A DNA stretch of 32,000 nucleotides from Candidatus Harpocratesius repetitus (GTDB lineage: Archaea > Asgardarchaeota > Lokiarchaeia > Sigyniarchaeales > Promethearchaeaceae), in assembly GCA_021498095.1 (NCBI GenBank), contig JAIZWK010000001.1, positions 1,410,001 to 1,442,000 of the forward strand, in the 5' to 3' direction. Shown here piece after piece: positions 1,588-17,812 of the stretch. The notes beneath the pieces are model-generated. The model saw only the letters and a list, made by a program, of their open reading frames with translations, did not search any database and was not told where the DNA came from. Each line of letters opens with the position of its first letter. The stretch's first letter is position 1. The position numbers and the translations under genes are program-made.

Positions 1588-1599
1588 ATTATAAATTAG

Positions 1600-1636
1600 A
1601 TTTCATCCTTATAAAATTTTTAAGATGAAATTTTTT
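1600..1636 (+). terminator. Hairpin plus T-tract after eno
   Basis: ATTTCAT(C)CTTA...TAAG-ATGAAAT stem followed by TTTTTT, 13 nt after the stop codon. Confidence 0.45.
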
Positions 1637-1748
1637 ATTGTTTCCTTTTTTATTTCATTCAAATTCATTCATTTTCTTTATTACGCCAATAATTCCATTA
1701 GAAATATTTTTATCTCTAAAAAATCAACAACATAGCAATCTTTGAGGA

Positions 1749-2573
1749 ATGTTTATGTATCTTAATATTAAAGGGGTAGATATTTATTACGAAATTCATG
1801 GAAACGGTATTCCTATTCTAAACCTACATGGATTTCCATTAGATCATAGGATTATGTTGGGTTGCATGGAGCCAATATTTGATGAAAATTTGAATACAAA
1901 ATATAAAAGAATATATTTTGATTTTCCGGGTATGGGAAAATCTACTTCTGCATCATGGATTAAATCTACAGATGATATTCTCCAATTAACTCTTGATTTT
2001 ATTTCAGAAATCATTCATAGTGAATCATTTATTGTTGTGGGGGAAAGTTATGGAGGTTATATTGCTGGTGGTGTTGTTTCCAGACTTCGAAATCGCATTT
2101 TAGGATTATTACTTATTTGTCCGATGATTATTGCCGATTTTTCAAAACGTCATCTTCCCAAACGCACAGTATTGGAGCGAGATTTTGATTTCTACTCAAA
2201 GTTTCCACCAAAGTTGCAAGAAGAATATGATTCAATCCTAGTTATAGAAAATGAGAGAATTTGTACCCGTTATCAACAAGAGATTCCAGATGCAATGGCT
2301 TGTGCAAATATGGAATTACTGAATCAAATCCAACAAAAAGCTTATGGATTTTCTTGGAATATACTTGATATATCTGATCCTTTTTCTTTTCCTACCTTAT
2401 TTATATTAGGATGCCAAGATGATATCGTCGGATATCAAGACGCTCTTGAATTTTCGGCCAATTTTTCTCGAGCATCTGTAGCAATATTAGATAAAGCAGG
2501 TCACTATGCACAGGTTGAACAGCAAGAAATCTTTGAAAAGTTAGTAATAGAATGGCTAAATAGAATAAAATAA
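1749..2573 (+). CDS. Alpha/beta-fold hydrolase
   Basis: LHGF oxyanion motif, GESYGG nucleophile elbow, QDD acid, AGHYAQ catalytic His. Confidence 0.92.
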   Translation: MFMYLNIKGVDIYYEIHGNGIPILNLHGFPLDHRIMLGCMEPIFDENLNTKYKRIYFDFPGMGKSTSASWIKSTDDILQLTLDFISEIIHSESFIVVGESYGGYIAGGVVSRLRNRILGLLLICPMIIADFSKRHLPKRTVLERDFDFYSKFPPKLQEEYDSILVIENERICTRYQQEIPDAMACANMELLNQIQQKAYGFSWNILDISDPFSFPTLFILGCQDDIVGYQDALEFSANFSRASVAILDKAGHYAQVEQQEIFEKLVIEWLNRIK

Positions 2574-2593
2574 TACAGAAAAAATGATTTATT

Positions 2594-3316
2594 TTACTTT
2601 ATAAGGAAGTATGTTAGTAAAATGCTGAGCGTGTTGTTTAATATATGCATAATGATGGGAATCATTAGATTCTCGCTTTTTTCATAAAAAACAGCTAAGA
2701 ATATTGCCAAAATAAATGCTAAAATTCCTTGGATGATATTTAAATGCGAGACTGCAAATAACAAAGAACTAAGAATAATTGCCCATTGCGGTGCAAGAAT
2801 TTTCCGTAATGCTTTAAATATTAATCCTCTATAGAAAAATTCTTCAACTACAGGCCCAATAATTGCAACAAGAAAAAAAATCAACCAGAAAAACTTATCA
2901 TCTTTTAGAAGTTGGAGAATTCGATTATTTGGAGTTGATTGAAGAAAAAGACTCAAAATCCAACCAATAAAAATTCTAACAAAAAATAACACAATTGTTG
3001 TGAAAATTATCCAAAAAAATATAATGAGTTGTGATTTTTTCACAGGTTGGAAAAAAGATTCCCATGAAAAACGCTTTGATTTTACTCCAAGAAGCCAAAA
3101 AAGGCCGAAATTTACTAAAATACTTAAAAATCCTGTTAATAATATTATTAATACAGGATTTTCTGTTATATAAAAATAGGAAAAGAGTAAAAATCCAGAA
3201 CCTTGATAAAGAATAAGGTTCAAAATCCACCATCCTGTTATTTTTCCCCATTCTAATAGTTTATTTTTCATATTTTCTGAAATCTGGGGGTAAATTTCTT
3301 GTTCTTCTGCGTTCAT
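2594..3316 (-). CDS. CPBP (Abi/Rce1-like, CAAX protease family) intramembrane glutamic endopeptidase
   Basis: Multiple TM segments; PVVEEFFYRG, FAVSH and HILNN motifs. Confidence 0.92.
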   Translation of the reverse strand: MNAEEQEIYPQISENMKNKLLEWGKITGWWILNLILYQGSGFLLFSYFYITENPVLIILLTGFLSILVNFGLFWLLGVKSKRFSWESFFQPVKKSQLIIFFWIIFTTIVLFFVRIFIGWILSLFLQSTPNNRILQLLKDDKFFWLIFFLVAIIGPVVEEFFYRGLIFKALRKILAPQWAIILSSLLFAVSHLNIIQGILAFILAIFLAVFYEKSENLMIPIIMHILNNTLSILLTYFLIK

Positions 3317-3341
3317 ATAGATTAACTCTTTTAAATGTTCT

Positions 3342-4037
3342 CTAATGGGAATAAAATCTCTTTTTGCAAGTAGGACATAGTATTCTGTAAAGATCGGCTT
3401 GAATAAATTTCCGTTTCTTTTTATGAAAACTATATGAATGCTTCAGCACAAGCTTTAATGGAAAAATTTGATCAACTGTCCCTCCTAATTGTAAAATCTT
3501 CTTGGATAGAAATTCCTGGTTTTTAGGATGGCTTAGATGAAGTGAATATATAATATCTGCGACAGTTATAGATTTTCTGATAAATGCTAAATCTGAACCC
3601 CGCTTTTTCACACCAAAAGGAGGATTTGACACCACAATAATTGGCCTTAATTGTTCAATTGGTTGTTTTAGATGATTAGAAATTACACATTGTAAATCCA
3701 TAGTATTAATATCACCTTGAATCAGAGTAATTTTCTGTTCTAATTGCAAAGAATGTATATTTTCTCTACAAATTTCTAAAGCTTCTGGATCAATATCAAT
3801 TCCTATAACTTTATGTGCTCCAAGTAGGGCAGCTGCGATTGTCAAATTTCCTCCTCCGCATCCCAAATCTATAACGATCTTATCTTGAAGATCATTCTGT
3901 TCAAAGGCGATGTGAAAGAAGATGTCTGCTGTTGCTATTGCATCTGTAAAATATTGTTCATATTGCAACTTAGGTGATTCAAAAGTCTTTAAACTTTGAA
4001 TAATATTGATCAGTTCAGATTTTTTCAAATGCATCAT
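3342..4037 (-). CDS. METTL5-family N6-adenine RNA methyltransferase
   Basis: N-terminal PKLQYEQYFT, DLGCGGG SAM-binding motif, NPPFG catalytic motif; divergent from csl4 as often seen in archaea. Confidence 0.9.
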   Translation of the reverse strand: MMHLKKSELINIIQSLKTFESPKLQYEQYFTDAIATADIFFHIAFEQNDLQDKIVIDLGCGGGNLTIAAALLGAHKVIGIDIDPEALEICRENIHSLQLEQKITLIQGDINTMDLQCVISNHLKQPIEQLRPIIVVSNPPFGVKKRGSDLAFIRKSITVADIIYSLHLSHPKNQEFLSKKILQLGGTVDQIFPLKLVLKHSYSFHKKKRKFIQADLYRILCPTCKKRFYSH

Positions 4038-4113
4038 ATATTCTGAGAATTCCCGCTAAATTGTAAAGTAAAAAAAGAATCGTTCATTCATTAACTATGC
4101 GATTTAAGAAAAA

Positions 4114-4743
4114 TTGAAAATGTTTAGTGAAGGGCTTATGAATCCACCCAAAAATCAAGAAAATCAGAAGCAATTTGTGTACATTGGCGATGAACTGGGT
4201 TTTACTGAAGAATATTTAGGAGATCCTTCCACCACTTACACCGAAAATGGAAAAATCTACGCTGCAATAGCAGGTTATCTTACAGTTGATAAAAAAAACC
4301 GACAAATATTCATTGAAGGAAGTTATACAGAACGCCAAAAAATTCCCCAACCAGATGATATAGTAACTGGTGTTGTTTACTCTATTCGAAAAAACTCTGT
4401 GGGTACAAAAATAAATACAATTAATAATTTGGTTGTTGTAGATATGGGTCTGATTGGAAATATTCATGTCTCAAATGTTTCAAAATCCTACGTAGATAAA
4501 TTGGACGACATTTTTGATAAAAATGACATTATTCGTGCTAAAATTGTACGACAAGAAGGAAAAGAATTTCAAATTTCAACTGTAGATCCTTCTTTAGGTG
4601 TTATTAAAGCGTTTTGCAAATATTGTGGTCATGAAATGCAAAGAAAAGGAAAAACTCAAGTAATTTGTCCATTTTGCAGTAATGTCCAGAGAAAAATGAT
4701 GGCAAATGATTATGGAGACATTGAAGAGATTTTACATTTCTAA
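4114..4743 (+). CDS. csl4: Exosome complex RNA-binding protein Csl4 (true start may be ATG at 4120 or 4138)
   Basis: N-terminal GDELG..EEY domain, S1 domain (GNIHVSNV), C-terminal PSLGVIKAFCKYCG...CPFC Zn ribbon. Confidence 0.92.
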   Translation: MKMFSEGLMNPPKNQENQKQFVYIGDELGFTEEYLGDPSTTYTENGKIYAAIAGYLTVDKKNRQIFIEGSYTERQKIPQPDDIVTGVVYSIRKNSVGTKINTINNLVVVDMGLIGNIHVSNVSKSYVDKLDDIFDKNDIIRAKIVRQEGKEFQISTVDPSLGVIKAFCKYCGHEMQRKGKTQVICPFCSNVQRKMMANDYGDIEEILHF

Positions 4744-4880
4744 AAAATCAGTAATTTCAGTAATTTTTTCTTTTTCTTTTAAATTAAGCAAACAAAATTC
4801 AGATATAATCTTATAATAAATAGATGGAGTATTGTAAAATAAAAAAGAATTATATTGTATCTTAAAAATAACATTCAGGA

Positions 4881-5123
4881 ATGAACAAAATGGCTCGAAC
4901 AGGAAAGAAAACAATATTATTACAAATTTCTAATATAGATGAATTAGAAGATATTATAAAATATGCACAGAAACGGGCAGATAATGCTGGATTACGTTTA
5001 ACCATTGATTATACTCACGATATTGGTTTAAAATTAATTGTAGCTGGTCCTCGGGATAAGATTCAATTATATGAACATCAAATACGTGATGCATTGCGTG
5101 AAGATGAGGAAGAAATGAATTAA
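4881..5123 (+). CDS. Small hypothetical protein (80 aa) directly after csl4
   Basis: Coding-like composition, co-oriented with csl4; mixed alpha/beta pattern; possible distant resemblance to the archaeal DUF2067 N-terminus (unverified). Confidence 0.65.
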   Translation: MNKMARTGKKTILLQISNIDELEDIIKYAQKRADNAGLRLTIDYTHDIGLKLIVAGPRDKIQLYEHQIRDALREDEEEMN

Positions 5124-5162
5124 GAAATTTAAATCTCCTTTTCTTAATGTTATGCTTTTTTT

Positions 5163-5582
5163 TCATTTTAAAGGAGAATTGCAATTTTTACAAAATTTTG
5201 CACCAATTTGATTGGATTCTCCACAATACGAACAAATTAATTCTATTTTTGAATCAAAATTATCTGATAAATTTATATTTTGGGTAGGATTTTCATTCAA
5301 ATCATCTTCATAAGCAGGATCATATTTAGTTGCTAATTCAATCTTTGAAAAGGAAGAGAACAGCTTAAATTGACCGAATGCTAGAAGTATCATTCCGATT
5401 ACTAATAAAATAAAAGCGAGAATAAAGAAAGGAAATATTAGGAAAACATTATGAGTAAATACAGGAATTAAAACGCTGCTAAAAAACATTAATATTCCTG
5501 TTATAAGCATAATTATTCCCACAATTACTTTAGAAGATAACTTTGCAGTTGAATTTTGATTTGGAAATCGCGAAAATAACAT
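5163..5582 (-). CDS. Two-TM membrane protein with C-terminal zinc ribbon
   Basis: Two hydrophobic helices followed by CSYCG...AKFCKNC. Start codon uncertain. Confidence 0.7.
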   Translation of the reverse strand: MLFSRFPNQNSTAKLSSKVIVGIIMLITGILMFFSSVLIPVFTHNVFLIFPFFILAFILLVIGMILLAFGQFKLFSSFSKIELATKYDPAYEDDLNENPTQNINLSDNFDSKIELICSYCGESNQIGAKFCKNCNSPLK

Positions 5583-5659
5583 GCTATTATAGAATTATTT
5601 TGTATTCAAAAATTTTTTTTGAAATGGTTCCTTTTTTGAATTGTTGGTGTCACAAATTC

Positions 5660-6103
5660 ATGGTAGGAAAAAAAAAGTCGATTGATGAAGAATTAGACGA
5701 AGAATTTTTAGAGGAAGATATTGACTCAGATTTAGATTCAGATATTCCTTCAGAGAAATCCAAAGATGAATTAGCCGAAATGCTCTCATCACAATTGGAA
5801 GAAGAGATTTCCCAACAAGATTACAAATACTTAAAACTTTATATTGAGCAAGAAAGTAAATTTGAATATTATGTCACAGTGGAACATCAATCTCATGGAT
5901 TTATGAACTATTTAGTCTCTAAAGTGCTAAAATGTGCAGGTGTTGAATTTGCTGCATATAAACTAACAAGTTTAGATCCTGCTAAATTATATATTCGGAT
6001 TGATCCTTCACGAGATATTAAAACAATATTAAAAGAAGCATTAGTTAAGATGAAAACTGAATGGAAAGGCATGAAAAATGCCGTTGCTGCCATGAAATTA
6101 TAA
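5660..6103 (+). CDS. rpoL: DNA-directed RNA polymerase subunit Rpo11/RpoL with acidic N-terminal extension
   Basis: V.VEHQSHGFMNYL...V.FAAY...LYI core resembles the RpoL/RPB11 fold; csl4-rpoL-DUF99 context. Start moved to ATG 5660 (MVGKKK) because the ORF-track extension overlaps the opposite-strand gene. Confidence 0.8.
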   Translation: MVGKKKSIDEELDEEFLEEDIDSDLDSDIPSEKSKDELAEMLSSQLEEEISQQDYKYLKLYIEQESKFEYYVTVEHQSHGFMNYLVSKVLKCAGVEFAAYKLTSLDPAKLYIRIDPSRDIKTILKEALVKMKTEWKGMKNAVAAMKL

Positions 6104-6184
6104 GTTTTTTTCATGAAAAAATGCCGTTGCTACCATAAGTTTTTTTCATGAAAAAATGCCGTTGCTACCATAAGTTTTTTTCAT
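6070..6184 (+). repeat. Tandem repeat, 35-bp unit CATGAAAAAATGCCGTTGCTACCATAAGTTTTTTT
   Basis: Exact copies at 6112-6146 and 6147-6181; degenerate 42-bp parent copy at 6070-6111 is the end of rpoL plus its T7 tract. Confidence 0.95.
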
Positions 6185-6191
6185 TAACCTT

Positions 6192-6224
6192 TATTTATTG
6201 TATTTATTGTATTTATTGTATTTA
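6192..6224 (+). repeat. 9-bp tandem repeat (TATTTATTG) x3 plus a partial copy
   Basis: Copies at 6192, 6201 and 6210, partial at 6219-6224, ending 2 nt before ATG 6227. Confidence 0.85.
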
Positions 6225-6226
6225 CA

Positions 6227-6748
6227 ATGCCTGATATAAAGGAAGATATTAATAAAATAAACGAAGAACTAAAAAAAGAAATAAACGAACAATTTTCTCT
6301 CAAAGGGAAATTAGCTGCTTTAATTCATGATATGGGAATAAAAGGTTTCAAAGATATAGGTATAAATAAACAATTAGCAAAATTTGGAGATGCGATTACC
6401 AATACAATTTATTCAATGGCAAAATCTGCTGTAATTCATCAATTTACTCAACGAAAAGTAAACCGAACTGTTTTATCTCATGCATTAAAGAATGCACAAA
6501 TGAAACCCTTTGCAAAAACACGCTCTGATGCTCATGCCATGGCAGATAGTGCAGAAGCATTTATTGGATATGTTTTCTGTGCGGAAGGTTGGAATTTGGA
6601 AAAAATGGCAACTCAACTATATAATTCTCTAAAAAATTATAATCTGTATGAGCAAGTTGAAGAAACTCAGGCAGCTATTGAAGGTTTCACAAAATTGCTC
6701 GAAAATATTAAAGAATACCTTGAATATAAATATAGATGGGAATCTTGA
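6227..6748 (+). CDS. Archaeal ribonuclease III-like (mini-RNase III, Ribonucleas_3_2-type) protein
   Basis: LAKFGDAITN...KVN..VLSHAL...DAHAMADSAEAFIGY matches the archaeal RNase III-like family found next to rpoL. Confidence 0.8.
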   Translation: MPDIKEDINKINEELKKEINEQFSLKGKLAALIHDMGIKGFKDIGINKQLAKFGDAITNTIYSMAKSAVIHQFTQRKVNRTVLSHALKNAQMKPFAKTRSDAHAMADSAEAFIGYVFCAEGWNLEKMATQLYNSLKNYNLYEQVEETQAAIEGFTKLLENIKEYLEYKYRWES

Positions 6749-6754
6749 TTACGT

Positions 6755-7378
6755 GTGAAGCGAAAAAGCTGCATTTTAGCATTTGATGATGGTAAACATG
6801 AAAAATCAGATCTTTTACGCTATCGAAAAAATGAACTAAACCAAAAATCGGTAAAACTCCATAGAACAGATCTGATTGGGGTAGTTACTAAAGGATTGCA
6901 ACTGATGCATGTTTCTAATTCACGAATAACTGTGGATGGAGATGATGCAACCACTCAAATGTTATCCATTTTTAAACAGAATCCCTTTCGAAATGAAATT
7001 CAAATCATTTTAATAGACTCTCCTACAGTTGCTGGTTTTAATATCCCTGATCCATTTAAAATTTATAAAATGATTCAAATCCCTGTTTTATTAATTCCAA
7101 GCAATCCTCCTACTCATATAATCGCTGAAGTATTCGAGAATATATTCCCCGATCGAAAAGAAGATCTTTCGATTCTAAAAAATTTGCCTCCATTAGAAAA
7201 AGTCGAAGTCTCAGTCAATATTTCTCCTACAATCAAGAAAAATGTCTGTTTTCATCCCATTGGTATATCAAAAGAAGAAGTGATAGATCTTTTGAATTTT
7301 CTCACCCATTATTCTGCAGTTCCTGAACCATTAAGATTGGCTCATTTAATTGCATCTAGATCAAGAATGGATATATAA
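6755..7378 (+). CDS. DUF99 family (endonuclease V-like / endonuclease dU) protein
   Basis: ILAFDDG, LIGVV, VDGDDAT, AGFNI and PEPLRLAHLIAS motifs; GTG start. Confidence 0.88.
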   Translation: MKRKSCILAFDDGKHEKSDLLRYRKNELNQKSVKLHRTDLIGVVTKGLQLMHVSNSRITVDGDDATTQMLSIFKQNPFRNEIQIILIDSPTVAGFNIPDPFKIYKMIQIPVLLIPSNPPTHIIAEVFENIFPDRKEDLSILKNLPPLEKVEVSVNISPTIKKNVCFHPIGISKEEVIDLLNFLTHYSAVPEPLRLAHLIASRSRMDI

Positions 7379-7503
7379 TTGAAGAATTGATAGAATTGGA
7401 AAAAGATCCTAGGTTGTTGAATGATTTTGAGCATGATTTAGAAAATAGAAAAATAAAAAATTATTCGCTATTGATTCTTAATTCAATCATTTAGCAATTT
7501 ATA

Positions 7504-7965
7504 TTATTTTAAATGACGTTCTATAATTTGTCGGAGTTTACTCTCGTTCTGTCTATTTATTCCAACCATTCCATATGTAGGAACACCTAATGCAGCCTCA
7601 ATGGCTGTTGGATCCATTCGATCTTCTAAATCTTGTTTATTTGCTATGGCAATGATTTTTGAAGCTCCTTTATTCAAATGTCGCTCAATTAGATCTTTAG
7701 TTAGCATGACATTTCGAGCAGAAGAATCTGTTACTAAAATTGTGAGTTTTGAGCCCCGAATGAACTCGTCCCACAAAAATTGAAATCTCTTCTGTCCTGC
7801 TAAGTCCCATACACACATATTTCCCAGTGCAGTGGGTACTTTCGAAATCTCTACACCTACAGTTGGTTTTCGTTCATCTAAGGGATGTTCACTTTTTAAA
7901 AGTTTCGTTAAGGTTGTCTTTCCGACGTTAGATTCTCCAATCAAAACAGCTTTAAATGCGTTCAT
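7504..7965 (-). CDS. Ras-superfamily (Arf/Rab-like) small GTPase, Asgard eukaryotic-signature protein
   Basis: G1 GESNVGKT, G2 PTVG, G3 WDLAGQ, G4 NKQD; 153 aa. Confidence 0.95.
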   Translation of the reverse strand: MNAFKAVLIGESNVGKTTLTKLLKSEHPLDERKPTVGVEISKVPTALGNMCVWDLAGQKRFQFLWDEFIRGSKLTILVTDSSARNVMLTKDLIERHLNKGASKIIAIANKQDLEDRMDPTAIEAALGVPTYGMVGINRQNESKLRQIIERHLK

Positions 7966-8181
7966 AGTGTTTCACTGGTAGCAATATTTTAGTGTTATGA
8001 AGAAAATGATGAACATCCTTATTCAAACGAGATAACACAAGTTTGATATGTTGATAATATGTCGATGAGATCATGAGTGCTCCTATTTCTGTGCCTCAAT
8101 CAATCGTCATTAATCCTTTTTCTATCTGTGATTAGATTTCAACTAATTTCCAGTAGTTAAAAATAAATTAAAAAAAAAATT

Positions 8182-8979
8182 ATGAAATTTCATATGGAAA
8201 AATTACGAATCATTCAAATTACTAAAGAGAATGAAGATCTATTTTATCATTATGTAAACGGACGAGAAGATGAATTCTTTTTTTATATTCTCGATTTTAA
8301 GCAGTACCCAGAAAAGACGCAATTATTTGTTGCAATTGATCAGCAAAAAATTATTCATGGGATTTATATTATTTGGCGGAATCAAACGATTCAAATACGG
8401 GGATCTTTAGAAGGAGCAATGATATTTCTCAAATTTTTAGATAAGCAATCTATTTCTATAAAGGAAATAACTGGAACTCTTAATCACAAAGCTCTTTTGG
8501 AAGAAAAGTATACACATTATGAAAATAAGTTTCACATGTATCGTATGACTTTAGAAAAAGGAGAAGAAGAGTTATTTGAGCAATATTCGTATGAAATCCT
8601 GCCTGCTGGAAGTGAAGAAATAATAGCGGGATTTTTACGGAAAGTAGATCCAAAATTCTGGGGTACATACCAAGCAACTGATATAATTATGGATAATGCG
8701 CATCTTTATTTAGCAATTAGAAAAAATGAACAGATAATTTCTCTGGCAGGATTATGGATTGATGAAAAAATTGGAATAATAAGTGTTGTTGGCACAGATC
8801 CACAATTTCGAAATCAAGGTTATGCTACTTCCATCGTTTCAAGTGGAGTTAAGTATTTATTAGAAAAAACCAAAAAAATTTTAATTCACGTAAGAGTGAA
8901 GAATACACCAGCTGTAAAAATATATAAAAAAGTTGGATACCGTCCCAAGTACGAGTATCTGGTCATGAAATTAAAATAA
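8182..8979 (+). CDS. GNAT family N-acetyltransferase (FR47-like C-terminal domain)
   Basis: VGTDPQFRNQGYA acetyl-CoA motif A and NTPAVKIYKKVGY motif B. Confidence 0.88.
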   Translation: MKFHMEKLRIIQITKENEDLFYHYVNGREDEFFFYILDFKQYPEKTQLFVAIDQQKIIHGIYIIWRNQTIQIRGSLEGAMIFLKFLDKQSISIKEITGTLNHKALLEEKYTHYENKFHMYRMTLEKGEEELFEQYSYEILPAGSEEIIAGFLRKVDPKFWGTYQATDIIMDNAHLYLAIRKNEQIISLAGLWIDEKIGIISVVGTDPQFRNQGYATSIVSSGVKYLLEKTKKILIHVRVKNTPAVKIYKKVGYRPKYEYLVMKLK

Positions 8980-8992
8980 TGAAATTTTTTTT

Positions 8993-9634
8993 TTAACCAA
9001 TAGAAGGATCTTCAGAAAAGACTACTAAGCTTTCTTTATCATTTCCCTTGATCATTACAGCTCCAGTTAATCGAATCTTTTCTCCAGGAAGATCAGTAAT
9101 ATCTTCATCTTCAAAACCGTTTAATGGTTTTGCATAAATTATCAAACGAAGTGCATTTTCTTCAAGTTGTGGTAAACTGTTGACATTATCATCATCTTCC
9201 GCTGATTGCTTTTCCTCTTGTTCTTTGGATGTTTCAGCCAGATCAATTTGGAAATAGGGTTTTCCTTCTAAATTAGAAGGGGAAATTTCCATTTTTACAA
9301 ACATATATTGAATTTCTTCAATAAAATCATTTTCTTCATCTTCATCACTATCATCTTCTTCATCAATATCATCTTCTTCATCATCTCCTTTAACATAATC
9401 ACTATTTTCTTCATCTTGGTTTCCGAATTCTTCATCTCCCTCTTCACTGGAGACATATTGTAGAATATTCAATCCATATATTGTTTCTGTATCCATACCT
9501 ACAATTAAATCGATTTCAAACTCATCGTCATCATAAAATGCTAACAACAATCCTACTTCTTCATTGAATTTATCTGAGAAATAATTGAAGAAAGCTTCAG
9601 ATTCTTTACGTTCATTTTCAAACATTGTTTTCAC
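8993..9634 (-). CDS. Highly acidic hypothetical protein (start probably ATG 9625)
   Basis: 213-aa ORF, 66 D/E by manual count (about 31%), central poly-D/E tract between beta-rich segments. Confidence 0.8.
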   Translation of the reverse strand: MKTMFENERKESEAFFNYFSDKFNEEVGLLLAFYDDDEFEIDLIVGMDTETIYGLNILQYVSSEEGDEEFGNQDEENSDYVKGDDEEDDIDEEDDSDEDEENDFIEEIQYMFVKMEISPSNLEGKPYFQIDLAETSKEQEEKQSAEDDDNVNSLPQLEENALRLIIYAKPLNGFEDEDITDLPGEKIRLTGAVMIKGNDKESLVVFSEDPSIG

Positions 9635-9779
9635 TTAGCGGAAAAAATTCTCTCTTATCTTTTTCAAATCGGCTCTGAATAAAAAGGATCTGCTTGTTAA
9701 GCTGAAATAGGAATTATTTCATTTTTAATTTCCTAACATTTAATTATAAAATTATATTTCCCGCACTTGCTGCAAAAAA

Positions 9780-11129
9780 ATGTCATTAACACAATTGAAG
9801 CAAAGTAAATCAAGAACAATTTGGAATAATTTGAACTATAACGTTAAAATTATTTTAATATTCACCTTGTGCCAATCAATAGGTAGAGGTATTTGGATGG
9901 GAAACGTGCTATCTAGTTATATTTATATTATTGCAGGGAATTCAAATGAATTACTGGGTTGGACATCAGGTGCAACAGGAATAATGATGACAATTGTCGT
10001 TTTTCCTGCAGGTGCTTTAGCTGATCGGTTCCGGAGAGATTGGATGTTATTCATTGCAGGAGGTATTGGAATTATTGGAATGATAATTTTATTTTTTGCA
10101 GATAATCTACAATTAGTTATCATTGCATTATTATTTTGGGGGCTTTATCAAGGAGTAACAAGACCTGCTTTGGAATCTTTATTTGCAGATTCTGTTCCTT
10201 CGGGAAATCGATCTCGTATATATTCCATCCGCCAATTTATACAACAATTCGGAATGATGGTCGGTCCTATGGTGAACATTATTTTATTTTCTTTCTTTGG
10301 AGATGAATGGCATTTACCTATATTAAAGAAAGTAATGGGTGTAGGGATTATTTTTTCCATAGGTTCTCTTGTTCTGATGTTTTTCTTTAGCGATCACAAA
10401 TCATTGGGTGCAAAAAGCGATGCTATTGTTAATAGAGAAAAAATCGTACAAGATCATTCAGAGAATAAATTAAATGTCTCTAACAATTCGGTTATTCATT
10501 CAAAATCTTCAAATATCAATGCCAATCCCCTATTGAAACGTAAATTTGCCCCAATTCGCATTAAAAAGAAAGCAATTCCTTATATTTTAGTGTCTTCAAA
10601 TATTCTAATAGGTTTAGGAGCAGGTATGACTGTAAAATTCTTCCCTATCTTTTTTATGGAAATTTATGGAATGAAACCTGTTCTTGTACAAGGAATTATG
10701 GGAATAACCTTTTTAACTACGGGAATCTTAGGTTTAATCGCACAGCATTATTCGCGCGCCAAAGGACGTGCCCAAATGATTTTTGCTGTGCAATTCTTAG
10801 CCACACTATGTTTAATTGCAATCGCCTTTTACCCTCCTGAAATATTATTGATAATTATTTTTATTGCTCGAGGTTCGTTAATGAATGCAGCTCAACCACT
10901 AAGTCGATCAATTTTGATGGATATTGTTCCAAAAAAGAAACGCGGCAAGTGGAATTCAGTGGAGGCATTAGCATGGGGTTTATTTTGGAACGCTTCGGCA
11001 GTTGTGGGAGGATATTTAATTGGATCGGGCAATAACTTTCAGCTTAATTTTTTAGTTACCGCAGGAATATACGTTCTCAGTTCATTGCCGCTTTTAACAC
11101 TATTTCATGCTGTAAATAGAGAATTATAG
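9780..11129 (+). CDS. Major facilitator superfamily transporter
   Basis: About 12 TM helices in two halves; GALADRFRR motif-A-like loop. Confidence 0.92.
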   Translation: MSLTQLKQSKSRTIWNNLNYNVKIILIFTLCQSIGRGIWMGNVLSSYIYIIAGNSNELLGWTSGATGIMMTIVVFPAGALADRFRRDWMLFIAGGIGIIGMIILFFADNLQLVIIALLFWGLYQGVTRPALESLFADSVPSGNRSRIYSIRQFIQQFGMMVGPMVNIILFSFFGDEWHLPILKKVMGVGIIFSIGSLVLMFFFSDHKSLGAKSDAIVNREKIVQDHSENKLNVSNNSVIHSKSSNINANPLLKRKFAPIRIKKKAIPYILVSSNILIGLGAGMTVKFFPIFFMEIYGMKPVLVQGIMGITFLTTGILGLIAQHYSRAKGRAQMIFAVQFLATLCLIAIAFYPPEILLIIIFIARGSLMNAAQPLSRSILMDIVPKKKRGKWNSVEALAWGLFWNASAVVGGYLIGSGNNFQLNFLVTAGIYVLSSLPLLTLFHAVNREL

Positions 11130-11211
11130 GGCGCTTTTGAGTATTATAGAGAACTTTAAAAAAAAAATAGAGAACTATATAAAAAATAGAAAAACATGAT
11201 ATTTGCGTTAT

Positions 11212-12009
11212 TTATGAATATCTGGAAGGCCGTGGTTGATAGCGGAAGATGGCAGACAATATCATGAAAAATCCTTCGAAAACTAAGATTATTCCCGACA
11301 ACCAGTAAAAGCTGGCGGTTACACCCAACATTAATTTCAAAACAGCAATCCACATTGGTACTTCAGATACATGATAATGGTTCACTAAATATCGCAAAAT
11401 GAAGAAATCTATTAGTAATGCACCCCAAGCAAGATAATAATATATTAATTCTCCAATTTCTGGGTGTATGTAAGGATTTTCCATTATTAATATTATAAAA
11501 CCTAAACCAGAGGCAAATTTATTTGCAAATGAATGCAAGATTTCCCTAAATGTTTTATTATATCTCCAAGCAAAAACAGCTCGATCAGTTAAAGCAATAA
11601 TCATTACCAATAAACCCTTCACCATTAAATAAAATCCAACAAGATTTCCAAATATTGTTCCTAATAATCCAAAAAACAAAAAGTCGATGCTATAATTTGC
11701 TAAATCTCTTTGCATTATTTTCTTGGATGCATAAAATATATCATATATAACTAAAATTACACCAACAGCCACTGGAATAAGATCTCCAACTAGAACTCTT
11801 GGAAAATCGGTTATTGTATCTTTTTGCGGGAGTAAACGTAACAAAACAACAAGAAGAATAATGAGTGTGTGAATTGTAGCAAGTGTGATGGTTGCCAAAT
11901 TCATACGGGCAAAATATGTGTATTTTTGCCCCAAAAATGGTGGATTTTCTTGTGCTATAAAGCGGGAATTACGTCTGTGCCTAAAAAATGGTGCATTGGG
12001 ATCTGACAT
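11212..12009 (-). CDS. Hypothetical multi-pass membrane protein
   Basis: 265 aa with about 7-8 hydrophobic helices; no family motif recognised. Confidence 0.75.
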   Translation of the reverse strand: MSDPNAPFFRHRRNSRFIAQENPPFLGQKYTYFARMNLATITLATIHTLIILLVVLLRLLPQKDTITDFPRVLVGDLIPVAVGVILVIYDIFYASKKIMQRDLANYSIDFLFFGLLGTIFGNLVGFYLMVKGLLVMIIALTDRAVFAWRYNKTFREILHSFANKFASGLGFIILIMENPYIHPEIGELIYYYLAWGALLIDFFILRYLVNHYHVSEVPMWIAVLKLMLGVTASFYWLSGIILVFEGFFMILSAIFRYQPRPSRYS

Positions 12010-12366
12010 GATTCAAATTTAACCTCAGCACATAATTAGTGGGGTAGATAATAAGGTTCTTTATTTGCATTTTATGTTAATAATTAAGTCAATTTTTAAA
12101 TTTTAAATGAGATATAAGAGCCTTTGTCAACATTTGATAGATTAATAAAAAAATAAAAAGCATGCATAATTTACGCATTTACCAACATTTCATCCAAATT
12201 TGAAATTTGTCGATCAAAAATTTAGAACTTTTTTTATCAAATCCTACTAAAATTTGATTAAAAATAGTCAAAAATCAACCCATAATTATATTTTCTAAGG
12301 TTCATCTTTGCCGACTGAAATAATTCTTGGATAAGTTTGATTATTGTCGGAAAATGAAAGATTAAA

Positions 12367-12984
12367 ATGGAAATTCTGTCAAAAATAAAGAAGTTGCTAG
12401 AACCTCATAAGATTTTACAATTTATGTGTCCAAAATCGGTAATTGTTGTTCCCTACGATCTAAATTGGCCAGAATGGTTTGGAAAGATAAAAAATTATTT
12501 TCTTCCAGCCCTAAGATCATTGACACTCGCTATAGAGCATGTTGGTAGCACTTCTGTAACAGGTTTAGCTGCTAAACCAATTATTGATGTTGATATAGTG
12601 ATTTATAGGGAAAAATTTCTTAAAGTTCGAGAGAAATTAGAACAACTTTGCTTCATTCACGAAGGAGATTTTGGAATTCACGATCGTGAAGCATTTAAGC
12701 CTATTTCAAAAGAAATTGAGTCAAGACTTCCACCATTACATCTTTATGTATGCTCTGAGGATTCAGAAGAACTACATCGCCATATTAATTTTAGAGAATA
12801 TCTAAAAGCTCATCCAAGTATCTGTGCTCGTTATGGAGCAGTTAAAATTGAAAGTGCAAAGAAGTATCCATTTGATATAGATGCTTATATATCTGCAAAA
12901 TCTCCTATAATCCAAGAGATCTATGAGAATATAAAAAAAACGAAAAAAGGAAAAATCAATTCCAAAGTAATTTTAATTAATTGA
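12367..12984 (+). CDS. GrpB/UPF0157 family nucleotidyltransferase-fold protein
   Basis: VVPYD..W, IEHVGSTSV.GLAAKPIIDVD, HLYV, FREYL, Y...K motifs. Confidence 0.92.
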   Translation: MEILSKIKKLLEPHKILQFMCPKSVIVVPYDLNWPEWFGKIKNYFLPALRSLTLAIEHVGSTSVTGLAAKPIIDVDIVIYREKFLKVREKLEQLCFIHEGDFGIHDREAFKPISKEIESRLPPLHLYVCSEDSEELHRHINFREYLKAHPSICARYGAVKIESAKKYPFDIDAYISAKSPIIQEIYENIKKTKKGKINSKVILIN

Positions 12985-12992
12985 ATATATGA

Positions 12993-14288
12993 TTAATTTT
13001 GCTTCTTTTTTGTTTTTTTCCGCCTTAAGACTCTACATTCTTTTGCTACACGAGTTAAGATTTCAACGGCTTCATCGATATCTCTTTGAGTATGTGTTGC
13101 CATTAGACTTGTGCGTAACATTGCTTTAGGACTCGCGGGTGGAACAACTGGATTTGTGTAAACTCCTGCTTCGATTAAGGCTTTATTATATTTCAGCATT
13201 TTCATTGTATCACCAATAATTATAGGAACAATTGGTGTTGGTATTTCTTGTGGGATGGTAGAGAATCCTGCTTCTTCTACTCCTTTACGAAATGCTGCTG
13301 AATTTTTCAAAACTTGTTTACGAAGTCTTTCTTCTTTTAAAAACAGATCTATTGCTTTTGAAGCAGTCGCTACAGACGCTGGTGGGATAGATGCACTATA
13401 GATAAGACTTCGTGCATGATGTGTGATATATTCAATCAAATCTTCACTCCCGACACAGAATCCACCAATACTGGCAAAAGATTTTGAAAATGTTCCAACA
13501 ACTAAATCAACCCGATCCATTAATTTAAAATGTCCAAGTGAACCTTCTCCATGGTCACCAAGATAACCAACTCCATGTGCATCATCAATAATTACTCTGG
13601 CGTCATATTGATCTGCAAGTTCTATAATACGTGGGATTTGAGCTAAATTGCCTTCCATTGAAAATACTCCATCTGAAATAATCCAACGGTTTCCTTCTTC
13701 AGGTAATGATTTTAAAACACGTTCTAAATCTTCCATATTATTATGTTGATATACTTTTGTATTCGCATAGGAAAGTCGGCAGCCATCAATAATACTTGCA
13801 TGATTTTTCTCATCTGATACAACCCAATCCCCTTTTTTTGTTATACCTGAAATTGTTCCCAAATTTGCCTGCATTCCTGTGCTATAACAAATTGCACCAT
13901 CCTTTCCCATAAAATCTGCTAGTTTATTTTCTAATTCTAAGTGTAAATCTAATGTCCCATTTAGGTATCGCGAACCTGTACAACCTGTTCCATACTTTTC
14001 TATTGCAGCAATGGCAGCATTTATCATTTCAGGATGATCTGCAAGTCCTAAATAATTGTTTGAACCTAACATAATTGTTTCTTTACCCCGGAGATGAACT
14101 CTAGGACCTATTCTTCCAGTATTTGGAATGAAATATGGATATAATCCCATTTCTTTTGTAAGGCGTGACATTCTAATTGTTGGTGAGAGAGGAAAACGTT
14201 CAAATTTACCTACTCTTTTTTTAACTTCGGATGATTCTGATGTTTTATATTTAACTTCAGTCAATATAATCACTTCATTTAAAAACAT
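12993..14288 (-). CDS. spt: PLP-dependent alpha-oxoamine synthase (class II aminotransferase), most similar by motif to bacterial serine palmitoyltransferase
   Basis: GLYPYF, GSNNYLGL, GTGCTGSRYLNGTLDLH, NHASI, DGVFSMEG, DDAH, PLP-Lys motif GTFSKS (13479-13496), NPVVPPA and SLMATH. The family call is near certain; serine/acyl-CoA specificity is inferred. Confidence 0.7.
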   Translation of the reverse strand: MFLNEVIILTEVKYKTSESSEVKKRVGKFERFPLSPTIRMSRLTKEMGLYPYFIPNTGRIGPRVHLRGKETIMLGSNNYLGLADHPEMINAAIAAIEKYGTGCTGSRYLNGTLDLHLELENKLADFMGKDGAICYSTGMQANLGTISGITKKGDWVVSDEKNHASIIDGCRLSYANTKVYQHNNMEDLERVLKSLPEEGNRWIISDGVFSMEGNLAQIPRIIELADQYDARVIIDDAHGVGYLGDHGEGSLGHFKLMDRVDLVVGTFSKSFASIGGFCVGSEDLIEYITHHARSLIYSASIPPASVATASKAIDLFLKEERLRKQVLKNSAAFRKGVEEAGFSTIPQEIPTPIVPIIIGDTMKMLKYNKALIEAGVYTNPVVPPASPKAMLRTSLMATHTQRDIDEAVEILTRVAKECRVLRRKKTKKKQN

Positions 14289-14723
14289 TAAATTTGATCA
14301 AACAAATATTTAATTAAATAATAGTAGATAGGAAAGAATTTAAACTTTAAGGCAAAAGTGTTCATGAACTGATCTCAAGTCTATTTAAAACATGTCATTG
14401 CATTTCTAACATAGCTAGATTGTAAAAAGGAACAAATTTGTTTTTTTTAGTATTAAGGAAATTATTTAATTGAAATCTCTACATATTATTATTTTAGTAA
14501 TTTTTAAGATCAAAATACTATTGTTTTAAATAACTCGTTATTTCAACGATAAATTTTTTTGATCTTTTAATATTCACAGAAAAGAAACATCTTTCTTAAA
14601 AAAAGTCATATTCTCTTTACTTTTTTGAGTTTTTTATTACCATTATTATATTTTTAAAATTGGAAATTTTTTATTAGTATAAATTTAAATAAGTTGAACA
14701 ATATGTAGTAATATGTAGAGTTA

Positions 14724-14749
14724 TTTTTGATCAATATATAGATCAAAAA
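14724..14749. promoter_or_regulatory. Perfect inverted repeat TTTTTGATC-N8-GATCAAAAA upstream of the SDR gene (candidate operator)
   Basis: 9-bp arms at 14724-14732 and 14741-14749, 15 nt before ATG 14765; related half-sites recur in the same intergenic region. Confidence 0.45.
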
Positions 14750-14764
14750 AATTGAAAATGATGG

Positions 14765-15871
14765 ATGATCATGCAAATTTTACTTACAGGCGCTTTTGGC
14801 AATGTTGGAATGAGTGTATTGACAGAATTATTAAATAGAGGATACTTTGTCCGTATATTTGAATTACCTACCAAGAGAAATAAGAAAATAGCTTCACAAT
14901 TTATACAAACTCATAATGTCGAAATTATATGGGGAGATCTCCGAAATTATTTAGATATATTAAAAGCAATGGAAAATATTGATTATGTTTTTCATATTGG
15001 AGCAATTATCCCACCAATGGCAGATAAATTACCTAAATTGGCAGAAGCAGTAAATGTTGGAGGTACGCATAATGTGTTAAAAGCAATAAAAGCTCAAAAA
15101 AATCCTCCAAAAATATTGTATACGTCTAGTATTAGTGTTTATGGGGATCGACGTGATAATCCTTGGATTCGGACAACTGATTCGCTTAATCCAAGCCCAA
15201 ATGATAAATATGGTGATCAAAAAATGCGCGCTGAATTAATGGTCCGCAATTCAGGCTTAGAGTGGTGTATATTTCGCTTAACATACATTACTTCAATGAA
15301 TAAACTTGATCTGGATCCATTAATGTTTGAAATGCCATTAGAAACATGCATAGAAATTTGCGACACTAAAGATGTTGGGTTAGCAGTAGTTAATACAATT
15401 GAAAACGATGCTGTATGGGGAAATATATTTAATATTGCAGGAGGAAATGCATGTCGAACAACATTTGGTGAATATTTAATCACTATGTTAAAACTTTTTG
15501 GTCTTGGTGATGATATTTTACCTGCTGATGCATTTTCTCATGAAAAATTCCACTGTGGATGGTTAGATACACAAAAATCTCAAGAAATACTTCACTATCA
15601 GCGTACTACGCTCCAATCATACTATGAAGAAGTAAAATATAAAGCCAGATTTACTCGTATATTTGCAACTTTATTCAGACCTATTGCAAAAGCAATCATT
15701 TTAAGACGTTCCCCATATTTTAAAGCAATTCGAAGATCAAAGAAATCTCACCGTCGAAAACTGCAAACTATTGGAGAGTATCTTAAAAATATTAATAGAA
15801 TTACGTCTCAAATAATGAAAACTGAACCAAAAATTACGAATCTCTCAAAAAAGTCTCAAATTGTTCAGTAA
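14765..15871 (+). CDS. Extended SDR / NAD(P)-dependent epimerase-dehydratase / 3-beta-HSD-like oxidoreductase
   Basis: TGAFGNVG Rossmann motif, WGDL, VNVGGT, TSSISVYG and YGDQK (YxxxK); basic C-terminal tail. Confidence 0.92.
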   Translation: MIMQILLTGAFGNVGMSVLTELLNRGYFVRIFELPTKRNKKIASQFIQTHNVEIIWGDLRNYLDILKAMENIDYVFHIGAIIPPMADKLPKLAEAVNVGGTHNVLKAIKAQKNPPKILYTSSISVYGDRRDNPWIRTTDSLNPSPNDKYGDQKMRAELMVRNSGLEWCIFRLTYITSMNKLDLDPLMFEMPLETCIEICDTKDVGLAVVNTIENDAVWGNIFNIAGGNACRTTFGEYLITMLKLFGLGDDILPADAFSHEKFHCGWLDTQKSQEILHYQRTTLQSYYEEVKYKARFTRIFATLFRPIAKAIILRRSPYFKAIRRSKKSHRRKLQTIGEYLKNINRITSQIMKTEPKITNLSKKSQIVQ

Positions 15872-16087: not shown

Positions 16088-16780
16088 TTATTTGGTAATC
16101 AGATGGCCTTCAATTGCTTTGAAACCGCTTTTGGTAATAACGCAGATTTGCATTCCATATCCTGAACCAGCATCACGGTTTTTAGCTGCAGTTAGTGCTT
16201 GTTTTACTAAATCAATACTTTGTTTTTCAGTCATATTTGGTTTATAATTTGCTTCCAATACTCCAAGAGCAAATGTCGATCCAGATCCTAAACTGGCAAA
16301 ATCTTCTTGTTCAGCCATATAACCAATAAAATCTATCGGGAAAATCTTACCTCTTTTTTCTTTAGTATCATATCCTCCAACAATCATAAAAGCATAGAAA
16401 TAACTACGGCCGTTGAATGCAATATTGCGAATAATATTGGCAATATATGAAGTGGTGGGCTCTTTTCCATTATGTTGAATTTCCATTAAGCGACTTATTG
16501 CTTGGGCTTGGCTAACCATGTACTGGCAATCAGCAACTCCACCTGCAATCGTCATTCCGCAATGTTCATTAATTTTATATAATTTCTGTGCTTCTTTAGT
16601 TGCAACAAAAAATCCTGCAGTGGCTTGAGATTCAGTAGCTAAAATCACACCATCTTTAATTACCAATCCAATTGTCGTAGTTCCTGTCTTTAACATTTCT
16701 AAATTTTGAGCATTTGATTGCGATTGGTAATCTGAATTCTGTGAACGAAATTGAGGAGGGATGTTATTCATTGTCATCAA
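16088..16780 (-). CDS. psmB: Proteasome endopeptidase beta subunit
   Basis: KTG|TTTIG autoprocessing site, Glu17 and Lys33 of the mature chain, GSGS motif, RDAGSG. Confidence 0.97.
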   Translation of the reverse strand: MMTMNNIPPQFRSQNSDYQSQSNAQNLEMLKTGTTTIGLVIKDGVILATESQATAGFFVATKEAQKLYKINEHCGMTIAGGVADCQYMVSQAQAISRLMEIQHNGKEPTTSYIANIIRNIAFNGRSYFYAFMIVGGYDTKEKRGKIFPIDFIGYMAEQEDFASLGSGSTFALGVLEANYKPNMTEKQSIDLVKQALTAAKNRDAGSGYGMQICVITKSGFKAIEGHLITK

Positions 16781-16837: not shown

Positions 16838-17812
16838 TTAATTATTATTTTTCATTGCTTTGTGAAAGAAAGAGCAATTGAGAAGAACTTTAGATTTTTC
16901 TATAAAATGATGCGGATGGTATCGCATTTTTGCTGTTCGTAAATTATTTTTTCCTAAATCCTGTTCTCGGTTAATGTACTTTATGTGAGAGGGAAGTTGG
17001 GTGCTAAATTGATTGACGAGTGCTTCGTATATTCCTCTATAAGATGTATCTGCTTTTTCTATATGAATTAACATCGTATCACTTGATATTTCTTCCGCTA
17101 TCGAAAATGCAGCAATTTTATTTTCAATCCATAGAACTCCCCCACTTAGATTAAATTTATTCCATTCATGTAATATCTCATAAATTGCTTGATCTTCATG
17201 AGATAGGCTGGTATCATCTGCACATGCATGTAAATCGCACCAATTAGTTTGAAGGTCGAGGATCTCTTGGTATATTGAGGACGAGATTGGTTCATAACGC
17301 CAAGAGTATTGTGATTTGAATTTATTCATGTTTTTACGAAAATTTGCATATTTTTTTCCTGGTAATTCGCTTAAATCACTCCGTAAATAAATATAATCCC
17401 AATTTGAACGATCTGATTCAATTTTTAGAAAAGAAGTAATATTTGGATATTCTTTAATTATAGTTAATAGAGAATTGGGAACTCTATCGAAAATAACTTC
17501 ATCCTGACTTTCATCACTATGGATATTCCAAGATTTCAGTAATTCAATCACTTTTTTCCATTGTTTTGATTCAGAACAAATAGGAGGAAAAAATATTATT
17601 CGTTCCTTTCCATTTTCAATTTTATTTTTATTTACAGAAATAAGAAAGAATATATCATCTACAAATGCCCAACGGAAGGAGTAATAATTCCTCCACATAT
17701 ATAAATTCGTAAAAGAGTATTCTGAAATTTTATAATTTGAGTCCCAGAGAATTTTTGATAGAATATTTTTATCTTCCAAACGAATTGGAGAAAAAAATGA
17801 AGGTAATTGCAT
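16838..17812 (-). CDS. Stand-alone DUF2156 / aminoacyl-phosphatidylglycerol-synthase catalytic-domain-like protein
   Basis: SEYSFTNLYMW, DRSNWDYIY...L..L.GKKY, IHIEKA...RGIY and YINREQDLG...LRTAKMRYHP motifs; no flippase TM domain. Confidence 0.88.
   Translation of the reverse strand: MQLPSFFSPIRLEDKNILSKILWDSNYKISEYSFTNLYMWRNYYSFRWAFVDDIFFLISVNKNKIENGKERIIFFPPICSESKQWKKVIELLKSWNIHSDESQDEVIFDRVPNSLLTIIKEYPNITSFLKIESDRSNWDYIYLRSDLSELPGKKYANFRKNMNKFKSQYSWRYEPISSSIYQEILDLQTNWCDLHACADDTSLSHEDQAIYEILHEWNKFNLSGGVLWIENKIAAFSIAEEISSDTMLIHIEKADTSYRGIYEALVNQFSTQLPSHIKYINREQDLGKNNLRTAKMRYHPHHFIEKSKVLLNCSFFHKAMKNNN

Follow-up and report, generated by a model that had tools for sequence, protein, structure and literature searches.

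Sphingolipids are counted among the traits of eukaryotes and bacteria, and the membranes of archaea are expected to consist of isoprenoid ether lipids. The present analysis concerns a gene for an alpha-oxoamine synthase (AOS) resembling bacterial serine palmitoyltransferase (SPT) in the Asgard archaeon Candidatus Harpocratesius repetitus, together with the short-chain dehydrogenase/reductase (SDR) gene that lies next to it. The two genes are located in a 32,000-nt window, i.e., the whole stretch of DNA that was analyzed, spanning positions 1,410,001-1,442,000 of the single 4.36-Mb contig (approximately 30% G+C) of a closed genome, labelled G000; coordinates given below without a genome label are window positions. 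The SPT-like protein P0001 (431 aa; 12993..14288, minus strand) and the SDR P0002 (368 aa; 14765..15871, plus strand) are encoded divergently on either side of an AT-rich intergenic region of 476 bp (14289..14764). The original prediction had interpreted this pair as a possible SPT-SDR module for the synthesis of long-chain bases, and a re-check of the open reading frames (ORFs) found both genes, every quoted motif, and the divergent arrangement in place. No archaeal metagenome-assembled genomes with Spt-like proteins were found in a Black Sea survey (PMC11334938), and a full-text literature search retrieved no paper tying SPT to Asgard archaea.

Among the described enzymes, the SPT of Sphingobacterium multivorum (SmSPT; 3A2B, 8GUH) aligns with P0001 over its full length without large gaps, and P0001 is likewise predicted to be of the soluble single-subunit type; P0001 differs from it by an N-terminal extension of approximately 40 aa, a basic C-terminal tail, and an archaeal host without a recognizable bCerS. 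The bacterial ceramide pathway Spt-bCerS-CerR, known from Caulobacter (PMC11087976), is related in that P0001 nests among Spt-like genes co-located with genes for a bCerS-like GNAT protein and a CerR-like SDR; unlike in that pathway, no bCerS was found in this genome, and P0002 is CerR-like only by its generic fold. 3-Ketodihydrosphingosine reductases of the KdsR/KDSR type (NF049977; Bacteroides BT_0972; eukaryotic TSC10/KDSR) were matched upstream of SPT-like genes in the Asgard lineage f7 and in relatives from the Syntrophia group, but not in the window. The pair formed by KBL and the SDR-type threonine dehydrogenase likewise combines an AOS with a divergently encoded extended SDR acting on a 2-amino-3-oxo/hydroxy compound; that pair, however, exists separately in the genome, and P0001 and P0002 are only 40 and 25% identical to its members, respectively. 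On balance, we consider it probable that P0001 is a bacterial-type SPT-like AOS acquired from bacteria, that P0002 is not its dedicated partner, and that N-acylation of the bCerS type is not encoded.

Family membership, active site, and descent of P0001

P0001 has the class I/II aminotransferase fold (Pfam PF00155). Its top NCBIfam match is the Bacteroidota-type SPT model NF047600 (SPT-CFB, 469.6 bits), compared with 390.7 bits for a BioF/Kbl-related subfamily, 379.2 bits for BioF, and 377.7 bits for KBL; the KBL models as a whole range from 311 to 378 bits, and the BioF model TIGR00858 (379 bits) stays under its own cutoff of 426. The top PDB match is SmSPT (369 bits), and lower scores were obtained for KBL (273), Sphingomonas-type SPTs (265-272), cysteate acyltransferase (212), BioF (approximately 193-207), and human SPTLC2 (198 bits). 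The score of P0001 lies under the equivalog cutoff of NF047600 (469.6 vs. 640 bits). This is no argument against its membership, because bacterial SPT-like genes supported by their context fail likewise: five genes with sphingolipid-gene neighbors, from Paludibacteraceae, Chitinophagales, Bdellovibrio, Bacteroviracaceae-type Bacteriovoracaceae, and Balneolaceae, reach 493-508 bits with the same margin over KBL and BioF. The cutoff delimits close Bacteroidota orthologs only.

Three AOS paralogs are encoded in the genome, namely P0001, a second SPT-like protein (G000 positions 2,728,156-2,729,322; 53% identity to P0001), and a KBL-like protein (2,355,049-2,356,125; 40% identity). The KBL-like gene is divergent from that of a threonine-dehydrogenase-like extended SDR of 336 aa (G000:2353607-2356128); the two probably represent a catabolic pair of SDR-type threonine dehydrogenase and KBL, and KBL-like genes are common across the phylum. 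A genome-wide search retrieved no BioB homolog at E ≤ 1e-5 and only generic matches (26-28% identity) for BioA. In line with the original prediction, biotin genes and genes of threonine catabolism are also missing from the vicinity of P0001, where the neighbors encode a GrpB-family protein, a membrane protein, an MFS transporter, a proteasome beta subunit, an LPG_synthase_C protein, and an M14 peptidase. Family and PDB scores, the phylogeny and active site described below, the lack of bioB, and the separate KBL-like paralog agree in assigning P0001 to the SPT clade rather than to BioF or KBL, and its SPT-like identity is well supported.

The motifs of P0001 are GLYPYF (residues 48-53), GTGCTGSRYLNGTLDLH (100-116), GTFSKS (266-271) with the pyridoxal phosphate (PLP) lysine Lys269, NPVVPPA (379-385), and SLMATH (394-399). 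A PVVP-type loop is also present in KBL, so that NPVVPPA is not diagnostic. Residue roles were taken from SmSPT (PMC10196870) and transferred by HMMER alignment, in which the P0001 number equals the SmSPT number plus 25. The SmSPT residues kept in P0001 are Tyr27/Phe28 (Y52/F53), Asn52 (N77), Tyr54 (Y79), Gly80-Ser81 (G105-S106), His138 (H163), Ser185 (S210), Asp210 (D235), His213 (H238), Thr241/Ser243/Lys244 (T266/S268/K269), Ala274 (A299), and the C-terminal Arg (R392). Changes were observed at Ala79 (Thr104 in P0001), Phe83 (Tyr108), Met271 (Ile296), and Phe114 (Met139). The replacement of Phe83 by Tyr108, which belongs to the acyl-wall and amino-acid-site set, is conservative, and most cluster-linked bacterial SPTs likewise have Thr at position 79 and Ile at position 271. 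When 28 SmSPT-defined positions were compared in 69 Asgard sequences, 17 from the Syntrophia group, and 57 bacterial ones validated by context, none of the positions told the Asgard clade apart from bacterial SPTs. The PLP lysine, the catalytic His, the Asp-x-x-His motif, and the Ser/Thr phosphate ligands are invariant in the 69 Asgard and 57 cluster-linked bacterial sequences. The KBL/BioF outgroup departs at the YxYF, GSR, Asn85, FSKS, and Ala274 positions; the contrast that had been drawn between GTFSKS and the corresponding segment of BioF and KBL thus holds in the alignment, where the outgroup differs at the F-S-K-S positions.

The active-site match supports SPT-like chemistry, while the amino-acid and chain-length preferences are not fixed by these residues. 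If P0001 acts as its family does, it would be a soluble enzyme of the homodimer type, in which PLP on Lys269 binds L-serine or another small amino acid, the acyl-thioester is placed against the wall formed by Tyr52, Phe53, and Tyr108, and a decarboxylative Claisen condensation gives a 3-keto long-chain base. We infer this product from family membership.

A scan of species-representative genomes yielded 80 bacterial loci from many phyla with SPT-like proteins 43-52% identical to P0001, and the ORFs flanking the bacterial genes were clustered without prior labels. The most frequent neighbors are a classical SDR of approximately 270 aa, matching the KdsR model NF049977 (30/82 loci), a bCerS-like GNAT protein of approximately 379 aa (28/82), and a CerR-like extended SDR of approximately 335 aa (23/82); a PAP2_3 protein of the PAP2 superfamily (approximately 326 aa) was found in 7/82 loci. 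The bCerS, CerR, and KdsR neighbors agree with the published bacterial pathway (PMC11087976) and with the "Spt-like clade B" described for anaerobic bacteria (PMC11334938).

Maximum-likelihood trees were built with quick searches and rooted on E. coli BioF and Kbl together with the KBL-like paralog of the genome. All SPT-like sequences form one clade apart from these three (support 99). In the LG+G4 tree, both SPT-like paralogs of the genome belong to an Asgard-dominated clade of 60 rows (support 100), which is sister to an Aegiribacteria gene with bCerS and CerR neighbors. After more Asgard loci had been added, a tree under a mixture model (PMSF) placed all Asgard sequences in one 86-row clade (support 94). 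Both trees place the Asgard clade within bacterial diversity, amid genes that have bCerS, CerR, or KdsR neighbors. A group of SPT-like sequences from Syntrophaceae and Smithellaceae (rows P0014-P0034, L025, and L028), 61-66% identical to P0001, is in turn nested within the Asgard clade beside the P0001 subclade. This position points to a secondary gene transfer from the Asgard archaea back to the bacteria that are typically their syntrophic neighbors, or to one in the opposite direction.

The original prediction had also extended to the origin of eukaryotic sphingolipid synthesis, a link that is weakened by the scores on eukaryotic LCB2 chains. For human SPTLC2, Arabidopsis LCB2a, and yeast Lcb2, P0001 scores 198, 187, and 158 bits, and the SPT of an Asgard f7 operon 182, 162, and 166 bits, respectively; the corresponding values are 192, 194, and 177 bits for a Myxococcota SPT and 212, 175, and 165 bits for a Bdellovibrio SPT. 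Because the Asgard proteins score no higher than bacterial SPTs and are nested inside bacterial diversity, these data favor acquisition from bacteria over a role as direct ancestor of the eukaryotic enzyme. The SPT lineage would have entered Asgard archaea from bacteria and diversified there, with two paralogs kept in this genome.

The adjacent SDR and the history of the pair

The gene across the divergent spacer encodes an extended SDR, as predicted. P0002 is of the 3-beta-HSD/epimerase type (Pfam and NCBIfam; Pfam matches Epimerase and 3Beta_HSD), is encoded by a single-copy gene, and carries the motifs TGAFGNVG and YGDQK, i.e., the TGxxGxxG and YxxxK signatures of an extended SDR predicted to be active. 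A protein-atlas look-up returned generic 3-beta-HSD/epimerase clusters only. On a profile of the 23 SPT-adjacent bacterial CerR-like proteins, P0002 scores 87.3 bits (median of the members 411, minimum 104) and takes the ninth place among the matches in the genome; the scores of its Asgard homologs all lie between 79 and 101 bits. This is the level of a generic extended SDR, and by this profile P0002 is not specifically CerR-like. It reaches 6.2 bits on the profile of KdsR-like neighbors, NF049977 is not among its NCBIfam matches, and its class is different, KdsR/KDSR being a classical SDR of approximately 270 aa and P0002 an extended SDR of 368 aa. The identity to the threonine-dehydrogenase-like SDR of the genome is 25% over 182 residues of the N-terminal half. 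Residues from about 296 to 368 (window 15650-15871) form a basic and probably amphipathic C-terminal extension, which is found in some homologs of 360-385 aa and is absent from the common form of approximately 330 aa; this extension may mediate membrane association.

Only one relative, 95% identical, keeps the arrangement seen in the window. The orthologs of P0001 and P0002 are on separate contigs in both other species of the genus (G089, 86 and 78% identity, respectively; G094, 77 and 68%), as they are in G165 and G285. Gene order in G089 locates the discontinuity. Its contig C18 is collinear with window genes 271-8979 and then continues directly with the SDR and proteasome beta genes, the SDR homolog following 385 bp after the homolog of the window gene 8182-8979, and the homologs of 8993-9634, the MFS gene, 11212-12009, and the SPT-like gene are found together on contig C40. 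The tblastn comparison thus delimits a displaced block of approximately 5.3 kb (8993..14288), one junction of which is the divergent intergenic region; a rearrangement in the immediate ancestor of the strain would have set this block beside P0002. A search for repeats bounding the block yielded nothing beyond short stretches of low identity, as is typical of AT-rich DNA.

The block comprises genes for an acidic low-complexity (Asp/Glu-rich) protein of 213 aa without a family match (8993-9634, minus strand), an MFS transporter (9780..11129, plus strand; Pfam MFS_1), the polytopic membrane protein P0243 (265 aa; 11212..12009, minus strand), which has no Pfam or NCBIfam match, a GrpB-family protein (12367..12984, plus strand; Pfam GrpB, E 4.8e-44), and P0001. 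The GrpB gene is convergent with the SPT-like gene across a gap of 8 bp; it is present in the 95%-identical relative and has no match in the G089 or G094 loci. The MFS gene is located within 5 kb of the SPT-like gene in all genomes of the genus examined (G089, G094, and the 95%-identical relative); a second neighbor conserved at the genus level is the membrane protein P0243. The gene for the acidic protein moves together with the MFS, membrane-protein, and SPT genes in G089. The conserved neighbor of the SDR in these three genomes is the proteasome beta gene (16088..16780, minus strand in the window; Pfam and NCBIfam), the orientation of which varies. Next to it, a stand-alone LPG_synthase_C/DUF2156 protein, corresponding to the aminoacyl-lipid synthase domain of MprF, is encoded at 16838-17812 (minus strand). 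This gene of the archaeal host stays near the SDR and proteasome beta genes in G094 and the 95%-identical relative and is missing in G089. Its product was considered as a bCerS-type acyltransferase and rejected, as no homolog of it was detected by tblastn in the 83 bacterial SPT loci searched; the recurrent acyltransferase of bacterial SPT loci is a different, unrelated GNAT protein of approximately 379 aa.

The distribution of the two families across the phylum sample of 301 Asgard genomes also differs. P0002 homologs occur in 156 genomes, including 54/69 genomes of lineage f2, only one of which has an SPT-clade gene, and were found in none of the 11 genomes of f16, a lineage with SPT-clade genes. 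No P0002 homolog was found in five further Asgard SPT loci, and in 20 additional Asgard SPT-like loci no ORF came up to P0002 in its score on the CerR profile. Conversely, a six-frame search of 25 further loci of the SDR family revealed no SPT-like gene; their contexts vary, with ABC, MFS, PadR, HEAT-repeat, methyltransferase, and decarboxylase genes and no AOS. A pairing of the P0002 family with KdsR-like SDRs was rejected as well, given that 23 of these 25 loci have no KdsR-like ORF and the remaining two have one distant weak ORF and one truncated weak ORF approximately 4 kb away. The proposed Asgard-wide synteny check therefore goes against the SDR as a partner of the SPT-like protein. Judged by gene order, the adjacency of P0001 and P0002 is a recent chance neighborhood, not a module, and presents a cautionary case of adjacency without conservation.

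Pathway candidates in this genome and in other Asgard archaea

Two classical SDRs encoded elsewhere in the genome are weak candidates for a 3-keto reductase, both unlinked to P0001 and unspecific. The protein encoded at G000:3831189-3832049 is the top genome match on the KdsR-like profile (218.8 bits); it scores 155 bits on KdsR, which is its fourth-ranked NCBIfam match, and is 30-35% identical to the Asgard SPT-linked SDRs. For the protein encoded at G000:3115463-3116335, TSC10 is the second-best PDB match (75.6 bits). Its family is class-wide (6/6 genomes of lineage f1 and 41/69 of f2) and does not track the distribution of SPT, and it was accordingly set aside as the missing reductase and stays a mere candidate. 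The TLC/Lag1 ceramide synthase domain (PF03798) matched nothing in the genome, although the control likewise matched nowhere. With respect to the acyl donor, the genome encodes ten AMP-binding ligases and a type-I FAS/PKS-like fatty-acyl megasynthase of 3,795 aa with the domain order ER-KS-AT-4xACP-KR-DH-PPTase (G000:C1:864088-875475, equivalent to L161:2088-13475), flanked by a carboxyltransferase and an alpha/beta-hydrolase. Provision of acyl chains in-house by the megasynthase and the ligases is plausible.

A different arrangement was found in lineage f7. In six genomes of its genus g40 (G127, G166, G172, G187, G196, and G202), the SPT-like gene is preceded on the same strand, at a distance of 107-174 bp, by a gene for a classical SDR of approximately 275 aa (L129:3375-5542, L132:4711-6903, L133:9124-11297, L134:8105-10257, L136:7928-10097, and G166:C117:324-2480). 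The two operon SDRs tested have KdsR as their first or second NCBIfam match (227-245 bits). One f29 genome has a divergent SDR-SPT pair, in which KdsR ranks third for the SDR (183 bits), and on the P0018 contig, which comes from a bacterium of the nested Syntrophia group, the SPT-like gene is directly adjoined on the same strand by that of a classical SDR. As an archaeal sphingoid-base module, the g40 operon is a stronger candidate than the gene pair of the window.

Co-occurrence across the phylum points in the same direction. A search for the KS-AT region of the megasynthase was positive for 27/34 SPT-clade genomes vs. 31/267 others; for a KdsR-type SDR the figures are 13/34 vs. 8/267. In L. 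ossiferum, an ortholog of P0001 (67% identity) adjoins a Mem_trans transporter gene, and the best KdsR-type match is 36% identical. Together, the KdsR-type operons and the co-occurrence of the megasynthase lend support to long-chain-base synthesis in some Asgard lineages. The proposal of an SPT-SDR module thus stands in part: the SPT-clade enzyme is retained and the SDR partner is not, and the broader idea of Asgard long-chain bases is strengthened by loci other than the one from which it had been derived. A third kind of AOS, equally distant from the SPT-like and the KBL-like paralogs (approximately 34% identity), was observed in a single case, in an f2 genome (G177, L163:6251-10124), 1 kb from genes for two classical SDRs, one of them belonging to the TSC10-like family of G000:3115463-3116335.

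Alternative readings and significance

Several observations weigh against the assignment of P0001 as an acquired SPT-like enzyme acting in lipid synthesis. The trees rest on a thin outgroup of three sequences and contain no eukaryotic, ALAS, or CqsA rows, and the stem of the Asgard clade is fairly long (0.23-0.35 substitutions per site), which permits a change of substrate. The search for a bCerS homolog that had been proposed ended negatively: a profile of the 28 SPT-adjacent bacterial proteins gave no match at E ≤ 1e-3 among all ORFs of at least 70 aa in the closed genome, and the same profile gave none at E ≤ 1e-5 in 27 Asgard SPT-like loci and the window. The profile of the PAP2-type head-group enzyme had no match among all ORFs of the genome, and none of the seven f1 genomes searched was found to have a close ortholog of the KdsR-type SDR that is linked to SPT in other Asgard genomes. 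As far as its components can be recognized with these profiles, this genome does not encode a complete sphingolipid or ceramide pathway. The co-occurrence with the megasynthase is driven mainly by f7, f16, f29, and the genus of the window, so that the counts are not independent, and in L. ossiferum no megasynthase was found with the KS-AT query, which is no proof of absence. Finally, the MFS and membrane-protein genes conserved beside P0001 in the genus would also fit an exported small aminoketone.

This last point leads to the most serious competitor, in which P0001 is an SPT-clade enzyme with a changed substrate that makes a non-sphingoid alpha-aminoketone, for instance one of short or medium chain length or a signaling compound or secondary metabolite, possibly exported by the MFS transporter. 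We regard this as rather unlikely. The conserved linkage to transporter-type genes, including Mem_trans beside the L. ossiferum ortholog, the lack of matches to bCerS and head-group enzymes, and the long Asgard stem are consistent with it, and AOS enzymes are known for substrate plasticity (PMC10196870; PMC11906848). It is opposed by the acyl-wall and amino-acid-site residues, which are the same as in cluster-validated SPTs, by the presence of KdsR-type reductase operons in two separate parts of the same clade, and by the co-occurrence of the SPT-like gene with a fatty-acyl megasynthase. A two-step module with a shared divergent promoter, in which P0002 would act as a CerR-like SDR reducing 3-ketosphinganine, appears distinctly improbable. 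In its favor, the window and the 95%-identical relative both have the two genes side by side in divergent orientation, an extended SDR is a frequent neighbor of SPT genes in bacteria (23/82 loci), and the basic C-terminal tail of P0002 could bind membranes; moreover, lineage f1 has no close KdsR-type ortholog and therefore needs another SDR if a long-chain base is made. Against these points stand the loss of synteny in G089 and G094, the five Asgard SPT loci without a P0002 homolog and the 20 without a P0002-like ORF, the 25 SDR-family loci without an SPT-like gene, the wide spread of the P0002 family in SPT-poor f2 (54/69) and its absence from the SPT-bearing f16 genomes sampled, and the ninth rank of P0002 among the SDRs of the genome on the CerR profile, at a generic 87 bits.

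A derivation of the pair from a diverged copy of the SDR-type threonine dehydrogenase and KBL genes, or an identity of P0001 as the BioF of a biotin pathway, is largely refuted and merits very little credence. The same genome does have a KBL-like AOS divergent from an extended SDR, SDR-type L-threonine dehydrogenases are among the weak PDB matches of P0002, and databases label some P0001 orthologs as 8-amino-7-oxononanoate synthase. However, P0001 scores approximately 80-90 bits lower on the KBL and BioF models and branches apart from these enzymes at support 99, P0002 resembles the threonine-dehydrogenase-like SDR only in its N-terminal half at 25% identity, and the biotin pathway is represented by no BioB and by weak, generic BioA matches. 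The reading that we prefer remains that of a bacterial-type SPT-like enzyme of bacterial descent, beside which P0002 has come to lie by chance.

A broader proposition, which we put forward tentatively and hold less likely to be right than wrong, is that the Asgard lineages f1, f7, f16, and f29 make sphingoid long-chain bases or close analogues by means of a bacterial-type SPT and, in the f7 operon, a KdsR-type reductase. The chains would be produced by the megasynthase of the organism or scavenged, and in the lineage of the window an unrelated SDR, possibly P0002, would have taken the place of the reductase. The Asgard SPT clade, the KdsR-type operons of f7, and the co-occurrence with the megasynthase turn the idea of fatty-acyl-derived amino lipids in Asgard archaea into a concrete, testable hypothesis, which bears on the "lipid divide" and on the lipid chemistry that was open to the archaeal ancestor of eukaryotes. 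If true, long-chain-base synthesis in Asgard archaea would be the first instance in Archaea of lipid chemistry of the sphingolipid type.

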